DNA of 64,000 bases from a bacterium (GCA_963643175.1 CAVIJF010000003.1:9649-73648), one strand, 5' to 3'. Positions 7,425-50,748 are shown, counted from the stretch's first letter. The notes: generated by a model from the sequence alone, not told the origin. Made by a program: numbers and translations.

Positions 7425-7690
7425 CCGGATGCCGGAACGCTGCCTCTGACCCGTGCCGCTCCCGGTCCAGGCGCAGGGATGCAAGGGGCGGCAGCCCCTT
7501 GCACAAGAAAGCTAAAAACTCGCTCTTCCCCTCCGGGGAAGAGCGCTCTGCAGGCGCGGGGCGGGGGGATGGGGTACCGGCAGAAAGCGGAAATCCTTGG
7601 GTGTGACCGGGGGCGCCGTTGCCGGCGTTCCGGAGGGTGCCGAAAACCGCCCGGCACCCCGATACCCCGCAAAAAGTAAGTGCCTTCCCC
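7425..7690 (+). repeat. GC-rich intergenic repeat, copy A
   Basis: The core is at 7471-7574. Hairpin 1 is TGCAAGGGGC-ggca-GCCCCTTGCA, hairpin 2 is CGCTCTTCCCC-tcc-GGGGAAGAGCG, and the tail is CGGGGGGATGGGG. Confidence 0.8.
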
Positions 7691-7709
7691 GAAACCTCCC
7701 GAAAAGCCC

Positions 7710-7738
7710 TTGCAAAACCGGACGGTTTGTTGTATAAT
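7710..7738 (+). promoter_or_regulatory. Sigma-70-type promoter of pgi
   Basis: CCCTTGCAA-17 nt-TATAAT. Confidence 0.55.
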
Positions 7739-7800
7739 AAGGGGCGTGGTCAATGCACAGTATGCATGAATCTGTTCCTGAGCAAGAAAGGAAAAGGAAT

Positions 7801-15529: not shown

Positions 15530-15870
15530 GGCGGTGCCGGTGCAGGGGTGCCGGGGACAAACCCCTTCCGGTACCGCAAACTGTCCGGCAGGCAGTGCTC
15601 CTTCCGGTATAGGCACCGGGGTACCGGGGTGTTCCCCGAAGCAGTGCCGCCTCCGGCGCCGATGCGGGGTTGCAGGGGGCGAAGCCCCTTGCAAAAGAAA
15701 GCAAAGAATCTCCCCCCCCTTCCCCGGAGCGGGCAAACGATTTGCACGGGGGCATGGCAAAACAGGCAACGCGGGGGCACTTCTCCGCCGGAAACCGGGG
15801 CGGCAGGATAATACCGTGCCGCCGGGAAATATTCCCCGCCATCCCCCGACACCGAAAAAGCAGCAATTGT
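15530..15870 (+). repeat. GC-rich intergenic repeat, copy B (hairpin 2 and tail degenerate)
   Basis: CCTTCCGGTACCGCAAAC module, then hairpin 1 TGCAGGGGGC-gaa-GCCCCTTGCA at 15671-15693, then AAAGAAAGCAAAGAATCTCCCCCCCCTTCCCC. Confidence 0.75.
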
Positions 15871-21747: not shown

Positions 21748-23835
21748 TCATTCCAGATCGGCGTCCTTGACGTACTCCTTGCCGTGCAGGGCGATGAACG
21801 CCTTGCGGGCGGGCAGGTCGTCGCCCAGCAGCGTATCAAACATACGGGCTGTCGCGGCGGCATCGGTCGGCGTGACGGCAATCAGGCGGCGCGTGGCGGG
21901 ATGCATGGTGGTTTCGGACATCATGGCGGGGGTGTTCTCGCCTAGACCCTTGGAGCGCTGGAGCGTGTAGCGGGTATTGCCCAACTGACCCAGTATCTCG
22001 GCTTTCTCAAATTCGTCGTAGGCGAAATAGGTCTTGCTTTTGGTGGTGATTTCAAAGAGCGGCGTCTCCGCGATGAACACCTTGCCTTCCTTCAGCAGGG
22101 TGGGCAGCAGGCGGTAGAACAGCGTCAGAAGCAGTGTGCGTATCTGGAAACCGTCCTCGTCGGCATCCGTACACAGGATAATTTTCGACCAGCGGAGATT
22201 GTCCAGACTGAACTCGGATTTCTCATCCTTCCGCTTGTTGCCTGTTATCTCTATGCCGCATCCGATGACGCGGATGAGGTCGGAGATGATGTCGCTCTTG
22301 GCGATGCGGTTGTAGTCCGCCTTGAGGCAGTTGAGCGTTTTACCGCGCACCGGAATGACCGCCTGAAATTCCGGGTCGCGTGCCAGCTTGACCGATGTCA
22401 GGGCGGAATCGCCCTCCACGATGTACAGCTCCCGGCGCGTGGCGTCCTTGGTGCGGCAGTTCACGAACTTTTCCACCCGGTTGGACATATCCACAACGGT
22501 ATTGAACTGCCGACGTAGCAGGCTCTTCTGCGATTCGGCGCTTTCGCGGCTCCGCTTGTTGTTCAGCACCCGACCGGTGAAAACCTCCGCCTCGGTGGGA
22601 TGCTCCATGAAGTATATCTCCAGCTGTTCGCGCAGGAAGGCGTTCATGGCGCTGTAAATAAAGGTGTTGGTGATGGCTTTCTTGGTCTGGTTCTCGTAGG
22701 ACGTCTGGGTCGAGAAGCTGTTGATGACCAGCACCAGACAGTCCTCGATATCCGGAAATGTGACGCGGGACTCGTTCTGCTTGTACTTCTTGCCCGCCCG
22801 CAGGAACTTGTCCACGGCGTACACAAACGCGGAACGGACCGCCTTGTCCGGTGAGCCGCCGTGCTCCAGAAAGCTGGAGTTGTGGTAATACTCCAGCATG
22901 GGCGCGGAGGCGGAGGCGGAAAAGACAAAATCTGCCTTGAGCTTGTAGTCGGGCTTGTCCGCACGGTCGCGCCCGGATGTTTCCAGACGCCACTGTGCCG
23001 TCGGGACGAGCAGGCTTTCCCCCTCCTTCTCGGCAACGTAGTCGGCGATGCCGTCCCGGTAGTAGAAGGATTCCAGCGGGAAACTGCCGTCCTCCTGCTC
23101 GAAAAGCAGGTCAAAGCGCACGCCTGCGTTTACCACCGCCTGCCGCCGCAGTACATCGGTGAGAAATTCGTGCGGGATGCGTATGTCGGTGAACACGTCC
23201 AGATCGGGGCGCCAGCGTATGACGGTTCCCGTCCGGGCGTTCTTTTTGTCCAGCGGTTCCTCGGTCAGCTCACCGGCGACCTCGCCTTTGCGGAAGGAGA
23301 TGCTCCGCCGGACCTGCCCGTTGTAGGATGCGACCTCCATGTATTCGGAGGAATACTGCGTCGCGCAGGCGCCCAGACCGTTCAGACCCAGCGAATACTC
23401 GTAGGCGGAGCCGTTGCTGTTGTTGTCGTACTTGCCGCCCGCGTACAGCTCGCAGTAGATGAGGTCCCAGTTCCAGCGACCCTCACGCTCGTTCCAGCCC
23501 AACGGCACGCCGCGCCCGTGGTCGTCCACCTCAATGCTGAAGTCACGGAAGTACGTGACCTTAATCACCGATCCGTGCCCCTCGCGTGCCTCGTCCACGG
23601 CGTTGGACAGTATTTCAAAGAAGGAGTGCTCGCAGCCCTCCAGCCCGTCCGAGCCGAAAATTACTCCGGGGCGCTTGCGGACGCGGTCGGCGCCCTTGAG
23701 CGATGTGATGCTTTCGTCGCCGTATCCGCCCGATTTTGCGGATGCCGCTTTTGTCGTCTTCTTTTCCTTCTGCGCGGCGGCAGCGGCTGTCGCGGCGCTC
23801 TTTTTTTCTTCGGTTATACCGGTTTTCTGGGACAT
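21748..23835 (-). CDS. Type IIA DNA topoisomerase subunit B (ParE/GyrB family), divergent, with Lys/Ala-rich N-terminal extension
   Basis: GHKL ATPase motif (EILSNAVDEA, LNGLGA), transducer, Toprim (ELYIVEGDSA...DADEDG) and a C-terminal LLGDDLPARKAFI tail. Confidence 0.85.
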   Translation of the reverse strand: MSQKTGITEEKKSAATAAAAAQKEKKTTKAASAKSGGYGDESITSLKGADRVRKRPGVIFGSDGLEGCEHSFFEILSNAVDEAREGHGSVIKVTYFRDFSIEVDDHGRGVPLGWNEREGRWNWDLIYCELYAGGKYDNNSNGSAYEYSLGLNGLGACATQYSSEYMEVASYNGQVRRSISFRKGEVAGELTEEPLDKKNARTGTVIRWRPDLDVFTDIRIPHEFLTDVLRRQAVVNAGVRFDLLFEQEDGSFPLESFYYRDGIADYVAEKEGESLLVPTAQWRLETSGRDRADKPDYKLKADFVFSASASAPMLEYYHNSSFLEHGGSPDKAVRSAFVYAVDKFLRAGKKYKQNESRVTFPDIEDCLVLVINSFSTQTSYENQTKKAITNTFIYSAMNAFLREQLEIYFMEHPTEAEVFTGRVLNNKRSRESAESQKSLLRRQFNTVVDMSNRVEKFVNCRTKDATRRELYIVEGDSALTSVKLARDPEFQAVIPVRGKTLNCLKADYNRIAKSDIISDLIRVIGCGIEITGNKRKDEKSEFSLDNLRWSKIILCTDADEDGFQIRTLLLTLFYRLLPTLLKEGKVFIAETPLFEITTKSKTYFAYDEFEKAEILGQLGNTRYTLQRSKGLGENTPAMMSETTMHPATRRLIAVTPTDAAATARMFDTLLGDDLPARKAFIALHGKEYVKDADLE

Positions 23836-23959: not shown

Positions 23960-24190
23960 TCCGGCGGCTTTTGCTGCCGGCGCAGTTGCAGGGACGCCGG
24001 GGGCGATGCCCCCGGCAAAATAAAGTAGAGGTTTCCCCCTTCCCCCTCCGGGGAAGAGCGCTCTGCGAGCGCGGGTCGGGGGGATGGGGGCAACAAAACT
24101 GGTTCGGGGCAGGGAAAAACCGGAGACGCGGGGTACAGGCACCCCTCCCGGTATCGGAAACACCGGAAAGTCCCCACTCCCACCGCAATA
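23960..24190 (+). repeat. GC-rich intergenic repeat, copy C
   Basis: The core is at 23981-24090. Hairpin 1 is the variant GCCGGGGGC-gat-GCCCCCGGC, the linker is AAAATAAAGTAGAG, hairpin 2 is CTTCCCC..GGGGAAGAGCG, and the tail is CGGGGGGATGGGG. Confidence 0.8.
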
Positions 24191-24203
24191 TTTCAAAAAT
24201 CCC

Positions 24204-24232
24204 TTGACAAATCCGGAAGAGTGTGCTATAAT
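24204..24232 (+). promoter_or_regulatory. Sigma-70-type promoter of ylxM-ffh-rpsP
   Basis: CCCTTGACA-17 nt-TATAAT with an extended -10 TG. Confidence 0.6.
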
Positions 24233-24285
24233 CTGTAAAGCGTTTTGCTTTACACCCGCGCGGCGTGAAAGGACGGTTTCACGGT

Positions 24286-30404: not shown

Positions 30405-30503
30405 GGGAATACTGAAAAATTTACGTTTTATTTACATATAAGAAGGTGCGGGGCGGTCAGGAAATGCGGTCAGGAAATTTTGAAAAAAGTTTTTCGCAAC
30501 CCC

Positions 30504-30532
30504 TTGACAAACTCTGCCGACTGTGGTATAAT
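30504..30532 (+). promoter_or_regulatory. Sigma-70-type promoter of tRNA-Glu
   Basis: CCCCTTGACA-17 nt-TATAAT with an extended -10 TG. The tRNA begins about 19 nt after the -10. Confidence 0.65.
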
Positions 30533-30550
30533 ATGCGAGTCGTCACGTGA

Positions 30551-30625
30551 GGCCCCATAGTCAAGCGGCTAAGACGTCGCCCTCTCACGGCGAAGGCGTG
30601 GGTTCGATTCCCGCTGGGGTCACCA
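30551..30625 (+). tRNA. tRNA-Glu (anticodon CUC), CCA encoded
   Basis: Hand-folded cloverleaf. Acceptor GGCCCCA/TGGGGTC, anticodon stem TCGCC/GGCGA, loop CT-CTC-AC, T-arm GGGTTCGATTCCC, 3' ACCA. Confidence 0.9.
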
Positions 30626-30689: not shown

Positions 30690-30955
30690 TGCTGTTCCGG
30701 CGCCCGGCGGGGTGTGCCTTGCATCCCTGCACCGGAACAGTTTACGGGGTGGGTTCGCCCTGAGAGCCACTGCTCGCCCGGTGTGGCGCAGGGACTATGG
30801 CTTCCGGCACCTGCAAGGGAACCGGAAACCTTACGGTGTGTCAGCATCTTCCCGGCGCAGGCACAGGGGTGCCGGGGCGAAGCCCCCGGCGAAATAAAGC
30901 AGAAGTCGCCCCCCTTCCCTGGAGGGGAAGGGGGCGGGGGGATGGGGCATCCTCT
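30690..30955 (+). repeat. GC-rich intergenic repeat, copy D
   Basis: The core is at 30854-30947. Hairpin 1 is the variant GCCGGGGC-gaa-GCCCCCGGC, the linker is GAAATAAAGCAGAAG, hairpin 2 is CCCCCCTTCCC-tgga-GGGGAAGGGGG, and the tail is CGGGGGGATGGGG. Confidence 0.8.
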
Positions 30956-35695: not shown

Positions 35696-35809
35696 TTCCC
35701 GGTCGCGTGCACAATAAATGGCAGGGAAGCGAGATACGCAACACGCGAAAAGGAGGATACTCGCATGGAGCAGAACCAATCACGCGACCTGCCGCCGGAG
35801 GAGAACACC

Positions 35810-36090
35810 GACCGGCAGGCACCGCTATTCCCGGGCGGGGAGGCGGACGGGGCACCGGGGCAAGCTCCTTCCGGCGCCGCAAACTGCCCGGTACGCAGTG
35901 CCGCATGGTCGCAGTCGCGGGGGTGCAAGGGGCGAAGCCCCTTGCATAAGATAGCAAAAATCTCCCCCTTCCCCGCTGGGGAAGGGGGTCGGGGGGATGG
36001 GGCCAAAGAAAGTCATACAGGAGCCGGGAAAACCGCCGGGCGCGAAAACCGCCAACGCACAAAAAAGCAACGCCTCCAACGCAAAAATTT
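35810..36090 (+). repeat. GC-rich intergenic repeat, copy E (closest to consensus)
   Basis: The core is at 35911-36002. Hairpin 1 is TGCAAGGGGC-gaa-GCCCCTTGCA, the linker is TAAGATAGCAAAAATCT, hairpin 2 is CCCCCTTCCCC-gctg-GGGGAAGGGGG, and the tail is TCGGGGGGATGGGG. Confidence 0.8.
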
Positions 36091-36100
36091 TCAAAACCCC

Positions 36101-36129
36101 TTGACAAACAGGGAAAAGTGTGGTATACT
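36101..36129 (+). promoter_or_regulatory. Sigma-70-type promoter of infC-rpmI-rplT
   Basis: CCCCTTGACA-17 nt-TATACT with an extended -10 TG. Confidence 0.6.
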
Positions 36130-36134
36130 ACCCC

Positions 36135-49331: not shown

Positions 49332-50748
49332 GCTGTTCGGGAAAAAGAACAGGAATGAAGAGGTGCCGGCGGAGCAGCTGCCGGCAGAGCAGGCGTCTGC
49401 GGATTCCGACGAGGAAGGCACGCTGACCGCCGAGGAGGAAGCAGCCGCCGAGGCGGCGGAGCAGGCGTTCTTCGCGGAGCATCCGGAGATTGCCGGGGAA
49501 GACATCTTAGACGAGGAACTGAGACTGGAGCAGGAGCAACAGGAGCGGGACGCTGCCGGGGAAGCGGAGAACGCAGAGAGCACGGAGAGCACGGAGAGAG
49601 CCGGGGACATGGCAGAACCCGCAGAAGAACCCGCAGAAGAACCCGCAGAAGAACCCGCAGAAGAACCCGCAGAAGAACCCGCAGAAGAACCCGCAGAAGA
49701 ACCCGCAGAAGAACCCGCGGAAGAACCCGCGGAAGAACCCGCGGAAGAGTCCGCGGAAGAGCCGACAGAAGAGCCAGTGGAGCCCGAACCGGCGGATATG
49801 CCTGCCGAGGCAGTAGCCGCCGAGGATACGACTACCAAGAAGTCGTTCTGGGGGCGCCTCAGGGCGGGACTGACCAAGACGCGCAACGCGCTGTTCGCCC
49901 CGGTGGACAGTCTGCTCAAGAGCTTTACCAAGGTGGACGAGGAGCTTCTGGAGGAGTTGGAGGAGATTCTCATCAGCGCCGATGTGGGTATGGGCGCGAC
50001 CGAGGAGATACTGGATCAGCTCCGTGCGCGCATCAAGGACGGGCGGCTCCGGGAAAAGGAGCAGGTCATGGACGCACTGCGCGAAATCATGACCGGCATG
50101 ATAGGGGAGAGCCAGCCCCTGCGCCTTGAGACATGCCCCAGCGTGATTCTGGTCATCGGCGTCAACGGCGCCGGCAAAACGACCTCCATCGGCAAGATTT
50201 CCAAGCGGCTGAAACTGCAGGGCAAGCGGGTTGTCGTGGCGGCGGCGGATACCTTCCGCGCGGCGGCGATTGACCAGCTGGCGGTCTGGTGCGAGCGTGC
50301 CGGCGTCGAGATGGTGAAGCAGAGCGAGGGCAGCGACCCTGCCGCCGTGGTGTTCGACGCCATCGCGGTTGCCAGAAAGCGTGCGGCAGACGTGCTGATT
50401 ATCGACACCGCCGGACGTCTGCAGAACAAGAAGAACCTGATGAACGAGCTTGCCAAGATTGACCGCGTTATCGACCGGGAGCTGCCGGGAGCCAGCCGGG
50501 AAACCCTGCTGGTGCTGGACGCGACCACGGGACAGAACGCCGTTTCGCAGGCTAAGGAGTTCAGTCAGGCGTCAAAGATTACCGGCATTACGCTGAACAA
50601 ACTGGATGGCACCGCCAAGGGCGGCATCGTCATCGCCATCCGGCAGGAGCTGGGCATTCCGGTCAAATTCATCGGCGTGGGCGAGAAGATCGACGATATG
50701 CAGGAGTTTGACGCGGCGGACTTCGTCCGGGCACTGTTCGGGGAATGA
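49315..50748 (+). CDS. ftsY: Signal recognition particle receptor FtsY with repetitive acidic A-domain
   Basis: NG domain motifs GVNGAGKTTS, DTAGRL and NKLDGT. The ATG at 49315 overlaps the smc 3' end. Confidence 0.93.
   Translation: MGFLAKLFGKKNRNEEVPAEQLPAEQASADSDEEGTLTAEEEAAAEAAEQAFFAEHPEIAGEDILDEELRLEQEQQERDAAGEAENAESTESTERAGDMAEPAEEPAEEPAEEPAEEPAEEPAEEPAEEPAEEPAEEPAEEPAEESAEEPTEEPVEPEPADMPAEAVAAEDTTTKKSFWGRLRAGLTKTRNALFAPVDSLLKSFTKVDEELLEELEEILISADVGMGATEEILDQLRARIKDGRLREKEQVMDALREIMTGMIGESQPLRLETCPSVILVIGVNGAGKTTSIGKISKRLKLQGKRVVVAAADTFRAAAIDQLAVWCERAGVEMVKQSEGSDPAAVVFDAIAVARKRAADVLIIDTAGRLQNKKNLMNELAKIDRVIDRELPGASRETLLVLDATTGQNAVSQAKEFSQASKITGITLNKLDGTAKGGIVIAIRQELGIPVKFIGVGEKIDDMQEFDAADFVRALFGE
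49612..49776 (+). repeat. 12-bp coding tandem repeat (GCAGAAGAACCC)n encoding (AEEP)n in FtsY
   Basis: Eight perfect units, two units with a single A-to-G change, three degenerate units and a partial leading unit. Confidence 0.95.

Follow-up and report, generated by a model that had tools for sequence, protein, structure and literature searches.

The segment at 23981-24090 of the window (the entire 64,000-nt stretch of DNA analysed here, C3:9649-73648 of the host genome G000) is one copy, copy C, of a high-copy intergenic repeat. The reading that we favour, with moderate confidence, is that of a mosaic repeat whose modules have been recombined in a linker, whose first hairpin (hairpin 1) would be kept as a hairpin, likeliest in DNA, and whose second hairpin (hairpin 2) would act as a terminator in a subset of copies. 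Its family, uncharacterised so far, belongs to a known class of bacterial repeats, in which E. coli REP/BIME and pneumococcal BOX and SPRITE elements come closest.

A high-copy repeat family in a gut lineage

The host MAG (Oscillospiraceae, gut, 1.99 Mb in 84 contigs, 61% GC, 96% complete) holds about 180-208 nhmmer matches to the repeat: 180 with a profile made from the five window copies and 208 with a second profile. The five copies in the window, A to E, were all confirmed, with hairpin 1 starting near 7480, 15670, 23996, 30871 and 35924. By our own gene calls, which come from a rough home-made codon-usage caller that also underlies the context statistics given below, 193 of the 208 matches (93%) lie mostly between genes, although genes take up at least 83% of the genome. 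Contig ends are touched by 61 of the 208 matches, and the repeat therefore breaks the assembly. On contig C5, outside the window, a run of ten Ns (∼47245, plus match; 18241 from the other end, minus match) is centred exactly in a long head-hairpin 2-tail palindrome, which points to a scaffolding gap caused by the repeat.

The exact type I form of hairpin 1 (see below) was present in 3 of the 24 other genomes of the genus that were searched. The sister species G023 ('Oscillospiraceae bacterium nC33_bin.8', closed 1.78-Mb chromosome CP091718.1) carries 129 copies, often in head-to-tail arrays. Its copies are strongly regional: among the matches listed, the first lies at 448 kb and none at 1.52-1.66 Mb, while copies are dense at 550-1050 kb, with ∼66 of them within 900-1000 kb. 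Although the record of this genome is a single closed contig, it lists a marker completeness of 59%. Only a small clade of one uncultured Oscillospiraceae genus carries the repeat, and in this gut lineage the repeats amount to a few percent of the intergenic DNA.

A phage origin was also considered and rejected. Across 2.9 million viral contigs, the hairpin 1 23-mer matched two and the hairpin 2 plus tail pattern matched one, so that the element is almost absent from them, and the two contigs inspected carry the ordinary element.

Architecture of the unit

The unit consists of a 5′ module, hairpin 1, an A-rich linker, hairpin 2 (in some copies carrying a 16-nt nested hairpin), a G-rich tail, a spacer and a sub-repeat of ∼52 nt. 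Units are single or arranged in head-to-tail arrays, whose periods in G023 cluster at ∼185, 240 and 292 nt because the ∼52-nt sub-repeat is present one to three times. Arrays in G023 reach six units, and long and short forms of hairpin 2 coexist in one array. Conservation runs well past the 110 nt initially reported, on both sides (extended consensus of 98 copies).

Copy C, on the plus strand, shows the modules in order. Its hairpin 1 (type II, 23996-24016) is formed by GCCGGGGGC (23996-24004), the loop GAT (24005-24007) and GCCCCCGGC (24008-24016), a 9-bp hairpin predicted with both DNA and RNA parameters. The A-rich linker that follows (24017-24034) has the type II haplotype (AAAATAAAG...). 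The core of hairpin 2 (24035-24056) has the left arm CCCCCTTCCCCC (24035-24046), the loop TCC and the right arm GGGGAAG (24050-24056). It is followed by the 16-nt insert of the long form, AGCGCTCTGCGAGCGC (24057-24072), predicted to fold on itself as GCGCTC-TGC-GAGCGC (24058-24072), and by the G-rich tail GGGTCGGGGGGATGGGGG (24073-24090).

The other window copies, also on the plus strand, differ in completeness and in module type. Copy A (7480-7574) has a type I hairpin 1 with a GGCA loop (7480-7503), the linker, the long form of hairpin 2 (7521-7545) with a rare compensated left arm (CGCTCTTCCCC/GGGGAAGAGCG), the insert and the tail. Copy B (15670-15731) has a type I hairpin 1 with one G-T, TTGCAGGGGGC-GAA-GCCCCTTGCAA (15670-15694), followed by the linker and the left arm of hairpin 2; it is truncated, with neither the right arm nor the tail. 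Copy D (30871-30945), located beyond the terminator of a tRNA gene (30551-30622), combines a type II hairpin 1, its left arm one G short, and a type II linker with the short form of hairpin 2 and the tail. Copy E (35924-36003) consists of a canonical type I hairpin 1 (35924-35946, loop GAA), the linker, a canonical short-form hairpin 2 (35964-35988) and the tail. It is preceded by a 5′ module (..CTCCTTCCGGCGCCGCAAACTGCCCGGTACGCAGTGCCGC.., 35840-35923) that is seen in the extended consensus and in the direct-repeat family and at the boundary with G023; since this module is common to other copies, the unit is longer than the reported 110 nt.

Hairpin 1 forms two old subfamilies

In G000, hairpin 1 exists in two paired forms, type I (TGCAAGGGGC/GCCCCTTGCA, 92 copies) and type II (TGCCGGGGGC/GCCCCCGGCA, 49 copies). 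The 159 copies with complete hairpin 1 columns comprise these 92 AA/TT and 49 CG/CG copies, 3 CG/TT hybrids and 15 copies with a one-sided mismatch. A sequence-only reading of the window had assigned type I to copies A, B and E and type II to copies C and D. This assignment is exact for A and E (TGCAAGGGGC/GCCCCTTGCA) and for C (GCCGGGGGC/GCCCCCGGC), but the left arm of copy B is TGCAGGGGGC, with one G-T, and that of copy D lacks one G.

No other hairpin 1 pair changes on both sides in G000, where the remaining stem changes are uncompensated. The same two types recur in G023, again with nothing further compensated and with the other stem changes one-sided. Within G000, the change of both arms is a single split between two haplotypes, each of which has been amplified. 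The two forms are old subfamilies of module 1 with linked flank and linker bases, both present in at least two species: the base immediately before the stem on its 5′ side (column 19) and linker columns 43-50 go closely with the type. An eleventh pair between columns 19 and 43 (T-A versus A-T) was tried and rejected, as the two columns show no association in G000 (odds ratio 1.7, p = 0.26). A split into two subfamilies can be mistaken for repeated compensation when covariation is read from a handful of copies.

Further stems come from other genomes of the genus. In G012, ∼14 copies have TGCAAGGGGCC-GCA-GGCCCCTTGCA, with one extra C-G pair, and ∼6 copies have TGCCGGGGAC-GGCA-GTCCCCGGCG, with A-T in place of a G-C pair. 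The stems of G009 are TGCCGGGGGAGCC-GCA-GGCTCCCCCGGCG, GGCAGGGGGTC-GAA-GACCCCCTGCC and TGCAGGGGAGCC-type, and one copy there has a small hairpin inserted in the left arm of hairpin 1. An alignment of 38 sequences from five genomes and stray MAG contigs has standard pairs in 98% of hairpin 1 cells and a both-sided change in 4 of the 10 pairs. Its covariation score was 0.295, versus 0.144 in shuffles, and 0 of 500 shuffles reached the observed value; structures slid by 1-3 columns scored 0.079 at most. On the stems of the sister species, the pairing of hairpin 1 is conserved through sequence change. Because G000 and G023 show only the I/II split, selection on this pairing rests on a few sister-species events, sampled at low copy number.

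Hairpin 2 is a length variant conserved as sequence

The left arm of hairpin 2 is CCCCCTTCCCC in both forms, including ∼61 of the 63 long copies, the copy at 23981 among them. What had been taken for the right arm of a second stem variant is GGGAAG + AGCGCTCTKCGAGCGC + GGG, that is, an arm with a 16-nt insert that pairs with itself (GCGCTC-TKC-GAGCGC, the loop base varying between T and G). The insert is present in 63 G000 copies and absent from ∼145. The short form, with a 3-nt loop, is canonical and perfect in 60 copies, and departures from it are one-sided. The two forms of hairpin 2 are a length variant produced by insertion of a nested hairpin, not a compensated stem variant.

The claim that both arms of hairpin 2 had changed together in copies A and C fails: the left arm of copy C (24035-24046) is CCCCCTTCCCCC and not CTCTTCCCC, and the fold predicted for this copy, instead of forming the proposed stem, has the C-rich arm paired to the G-rich tail, with the inner hairpin enclosed between them. 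Among the 63 long copies the compensated arm CGCTCTTCCCC is found only in copy A (7521-7545), one more copy being partly compensated. In copy A three left-arm bases have changed together and now complement the long-form right arm, which looks like the signature of templated palindrome correction (quasi-palindrome). As with the subfamilies of hairpin 1, an insertion can be mistaken for a stem variant when few copies are read.

Consensus sequences of G000 and G023 are identical over hairpin 1 (23/23), the arms of hairpin 2 (17/17) and the tail (18/18), versus 12/18 in the 5′ flank and 14/18 in the linker, the surrounding genes being ∼88-90% identical. Judged from these consensus sequences, it is the sequence of hairpin 2 and of the tail that is conserved. 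The earlier statement that the structure is conserved rather than the sequence is borne out for hairpin 1, by way of the sister species and not of the evidence first offered for it, and wrong for hairpin 2, the arms of which are nearly invariant in sequence. The right arm of hairpin 2 and the tail together provide four G-runs separated by 1-7-nt loops, a G-quadruplex-type motif, in 83 of 140 copies; this motif arises in short-form copies.

Modules recombine in the linker

The linker was said to co-vary with hairpin 1, and it does: column 46 is G/A in 89 of 91 type I copies and T/C in 47 of 48 type II copies. By column 58 nothing is left of this association. Hairpin 1 type and hairpin 2 form assort almost independently, with 44 copies of I+short, 30 of I+long, 33 of II+short and 10 of II+long (Fisher p = 0.07). 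All four combinations thus occur as had been claimed, once the second variant of hairpin 2 is read as the long form, and the accompanying suggestion of modular recombination is upheld by the near-independent assortment and by the break of linkage within the A-rich linker. Recombination joins the modules at a point within the 3′ half of the linker. In the mechanism that we propose, recombination at the linker would shuffle the modules and so generate all four combinations. Hybrids within hairpin 1 make up ∼2% and are no rarer than recombinants in the neighbouring intervals.

The apex of hairpin 1 matches a DNA mini-hairpin motif

Read on the G-rich strand, the loop of hairpin 1 is GNA or GNNA in 107 of the 122 intact copies of G000 and in 195 of the 202 copies sampled from G023 (88-97%), and it is always closed by C-G. 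It is exactly reverse-complemented (TTC, TGCC) in six G000 and three G023 copies. GCGNAGC and GCGNNAGC are mini-hairpin DNA motifs of extraordinary stability, whose RNA versions are much less stable (PMC13037366). The apex of hairpin 1 is like these motifs in 88-97% of copies and with both loop lengths, the likeness being a match of sequence only (PMC13037366). The motifs form a physical-chemistry class known from phage single-stranded DNA origins and promoters and, unlike the element described here, are not a repeat family.

On balance we lean towards DNA as the level at which hairpin 1 is constrained, and hairpin 2 may have a role as an RNA terminator in some of the copies. What hairpin 1 would keep is its pairing and a G(N)NA loop with a closing C-G pair, and not the letters of the stem. 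Either constraint or continual repair, with the palindrome serving as template for copying, may preserve it as a hairpin in single-stranded nucleic acid, most likely DNA that would be extruded in the course of replication or supercoiling. In the closed chromosome of G023, element orientation showed no switch with respect to replication (103 plus, 90 minus), and a lagging-strand hairpin model gains nothing from this. The foot pair of hairpin 1 changes one-sidedly from T-A to T-G in 9 of 30 distinct rows; as T-G is tolerable in RNA and not in DNA, this counts against a DNA-level reading.

Transcription, terminators and an RNA-level alternative

That T-G (U-G) tolerance is one of several points in favour of a different explanation, in which the element works as RNA: its transcribed hairpins would be terminators, stabilisers of mRNA 3′ ends or a small RNA, and the compensation would reflect selection on RNA folding, as proposed for REP/BOX transcripts. 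We regard this as unlikely for the element as a whole. Both hairpins do fold strongly as RNA (z −2.9 to −4.1). When the minus strand is read, the complement of the A-rich linker comes after hairpin 2, and a terminator scan detects copies A and E. The criterion applied, a GC stem followed by a T-run, does not single out copies C and D and never hairpin 1, which has no T-run after it on either strand. Overall, 57 of 140 copies (∼40%) have at least five Ts among the eight positions after hairpin 2 on the minus strand.

These T-rich copies are enriched where the 3′ end of a gene faces the tail side (26:17 versus 17:44, p = 0.0012; exploratory, own gene calls). The effect is also seen within type II alone (p = 0.002), and the control with the other flank gave p = 0.55. 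This pattern suggests that a subset of copies serves as terminators; in copies behind the 3′ end of a gene, hairpin 2 and the linker, read on the opposite strand, would form an intrinsic terminator.

The placement of the copies argues against RNA as the general level of action. They occur in every gene-orientation context in G000, including 36 divergent regions (own gene calls). Four of the window copies (A, C, D and E) are located outside predicted transcription units, each of them preceded by a predicted terminator, followed by a predicted promoter, or flanked in both ways, with copy C between divergent promoters. No family of Rfam 15 matches the repeat in the window or in the G023 arrays, where the only hits were a tRNA (window) and a TPP riboswitch (G023 locus). 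Furthermore, the four-base loops of hairpin 1, GACA, GGCA and GGTA, are GNYA and not GNRA, and GCGNAGC is far more stable as DNA.

Several observations were made on the sequences around copy C. It is flanked by a GyrB/ParE-type topoisomerase gene (21748-23835, minus strand, divergent) and by ylxM-ffh (from 24265, plus strand), with a perfect TTGACA-17-TATAAT promoter downstream of the copy at 24204-24232. Just downstream of this ylxM-ffh promoter, a hairpin in the leader, TGTAAAGC-GTTT-TGCTTTACA (24236-24257), is kept in seven of seven genus relatives inspected, even where the upstream region differs. The window has four near-identical strong promoters (7692-7739, 24186-24233, 30486-30533 and 36083-36130) with an A/T-rich upstream stretch (AAAAATTTTCAAAAnCCCTTGACA-17-TATAAT), each of three lying 170-225 nt downstream from a repeat copy. 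In G023 the ylxM promoter is likewise conserved, with no repeat at that place, so the promoters are not part of the repeat. Elsewhere in the window, at 49578-49799, a 12-nt unit, AGAACCCGCAGA, is tandemly repeated ∼14 times, the inner copies being identical; this array probably encodes a four-residue peptide repeat within a gene.

Synteny breakpoints and an alternative without constraint

In the region examined, synteny between G000 and G023 is broken at three places, which coincide exactly with copies C, D and E. The region upstream of ylxM differs in every relative. At 35705-35830, an ORF (ATGGAGCAGAACCAATCACGC...) begins behind a ribosome-binding site and after ∼100 nt runs straight into copy E. 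The same ORF is intact as a long gene in G023 (1555100 onward), and its body is missing in G000. In this one case the body of a gene has been replaced by the repeat. At the copies examined, no clean empty site or target duplication was recovered, synteny being broken at each, and no terminal inverted repeats were evident for the unit containing hairpin 1; target-site duplication and terminal inverted repeats are the marks of a MITE.

The presence of repeats at these breakpoints is in keeping with a second alternative, namely that there is no functional constraint at all: selfish or neutral DNA would have amplified two subfamilies, the arms changing together by intrastrand template switching or gene conversion. 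The single haplotype split within each of G000 and G023, with all other stem changes uncompensated, fits this explanation, as do the templated-looking change of three bases in copy A and the hybrids of hairpin 1, which are no rarer than recombinants nearby. Flipped loops and nested hairpin insertions in both hairpins likewise point to mutation driven by palindromes. We nevertheless consider it improbable, since species with a difference of ∼10-12% in their genes, and with diverged linkers and flanks in these units, share identical stems, loop class and tail, and since template switching alone is insufficient to account for 88-97% of copies having the G(N)NA loop on one and the same strand.

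A third alternative, very improbable, makes hairpin 1 a duplex-DNA site with dyad symmetry, bound by a dimeric protein and with two half-site specificities as its two forms. Perfect palindromic stems with near-invariant GGGG/CCCC cores and symmetric half-site changes are as expected for such a site, but the spacing of the half-sites is free (3-/4-nt loops, apex stems 1-3 bp longer in G012 and G009), the centre is asymmetric and strand-specific (GNA) and a candidate protein was not identified. The free variation between three- and four-base loops and the apical extensions of the stem argue for a single-strand hairpin and against a rigid duplex site for a dimer.

Related hairpins elsewhere

The exact 23-mer TGCAAGGGGCGAAGCCCCTTGCA recurs many times inside different repeats in MAGs of rabbit-gut Clostridia and of soil Alphaproteobacteria. 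In the former (loci L023, L041, L044, L066, L068, L072, L073 and L076) it is joined to a hairpin GCAGCTTTACCGGCG..GTCGGTAAAGCTGC, and in the latter (loci L013, L015, L027, L052-L054, L059, L064, L067, L082 and L083) it lies in a nested palindrome. Going by the sequences, the recurrence may reflect homology or coincidence among GC-rich palindromes. A speculative idea, to which we give little credence, is that hairpin 1, with its G(N)NA mini-hairpin and 10-bp stem, might be a single-stranded DNA signal read by a non-Y1 enzyme that copies or moves modules, and might be shared well beyond the genus. If true, this would be a widespread, RAYT-independent way of spreading palindromic repeats.

A second unnamed repeat, AGCCTTCCCCAGCGGGGAAGG-GGGACCGC-GAAG-GCGGTGGATGAGGAGAG, was seen in 25 of 97 sampled genera of the family, often at contig ends (loci L113, L116, L121, L123 and ∼20 others, in other genera of the family). 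It has the same C4TTC4/G4AAG4 hairpin. Its other hairpin covaries clearly (CCGC/GCGG, CCAC/GTGG, GTCACC/GGTGAC) and sometimes has long insertions. No Rfam match was found for this repeat.

Comparison with known repeat systems

The repeat was compared with the families that it most resembles. REP/BIME elements have palindromic units y, z1 and z2 that differ yet stay complementary, chimeric 'atypical' mosaics and tandem BIME-2 arrays (PMC3333891). The likeness extends to hundreds of extragenic GC-rich palindromes, to subtype stems that differ while remaining complementary, to chimeric mosaics of units and linkers (BIME linkers L, S, s, l and r), to tandem arrays of varying copy number (PMC3333891) and to clustering at rearrangement points. 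In G000 there are ∼140 intact 10-bp palindromes of hairpin 1, and 93% of the matches are intergenic, as befits a short, extragenic, high-copy palindrome. Mosaic combinations of subtypes and linkers and tandem arrays are both present, linkage being confined to hairpin 1 and the linker. BIMEs are also defined by the binding of IHF, gyrase or DNA polymerase I.

The differences concern the features that define REP sequences and their enzyme. REP palindromes have a conserved GTAG on the 5′ side. No conserved GTAG was found 5′ of hairpin 1, where type I has the flank GCGGGG(T/A) and type II the flank G(C/T)AGGGG; T stands at column 14 in only 15 of 48 type II copies, at a site 3 nt from the foot. 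Binding by RAYT needs a mismatch in the stem, and the stems of hairpin 1 are perfect. A search for RAYT (Y1 transposase, PF01797) gave no match in G000, the closed G023, G012, G009 or G020, while the same search does match in the repeat-free G001 and in six control genomes. A RAYT/Y1 transposase was rejected as the mobiliser, none being found in the repeat-bearing genomes searched. REP/BIME elements are built from alternating REP/iREP pairs and ours from direct repeats; hairpin 1 is not found in inverted pairs, yet six loci in G000 and several in G012 hold a long head-hairpin 2-tail palindrome that is REPIN-like. Further features set the family apart from REP/BIME: the G(N)NA mini-hairpin apex, a second, sequence-invariant hairpin of C- and G-runs, the G-rich tail and the Firmicute host.

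Pneumococcal repeats offer two further parallels, BOX, with its modular boxA-boxBn-boxC build, and SPRITE, which resembles a rho-independent terminator (PMC3049150). Like BOX, the repeat is composite, modular and intergenic in a Firmicute genome of ∼2 Mb, with independently folding modules and an internal module of variable number (PMC3049150), here the ∼52-nt sub-repeat present one to three times. Unlike AT-rich BOX, it is GC-rich and is tandemly arrayed as whole units. The likeness is one of build, in which similarity of sequence is not expected, and neither terminal inverted repeats nor target duplications were seen in our family. As in SPRITE, an interspersed repeat combines a stem with a U-rich tract, formed here by hairpin 2 and the reverse-complemented linker in ∼40% of copies; in contrast to SPRITE, the terminator likeness is restricted to one strand and to part of the family, and hairpin 1, the tail and the sub-repeats are extra modules.

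Taken together, the family works like REP/BIME, BOX and SPRITE but lacks defining properties of REP/RAYT systems. It provides a clean case of a REP/BIME-like system without the RAYT enzyme and the GTAG motif, useful for asking how RAYT-less repeats spread and why their hairpins are kept.
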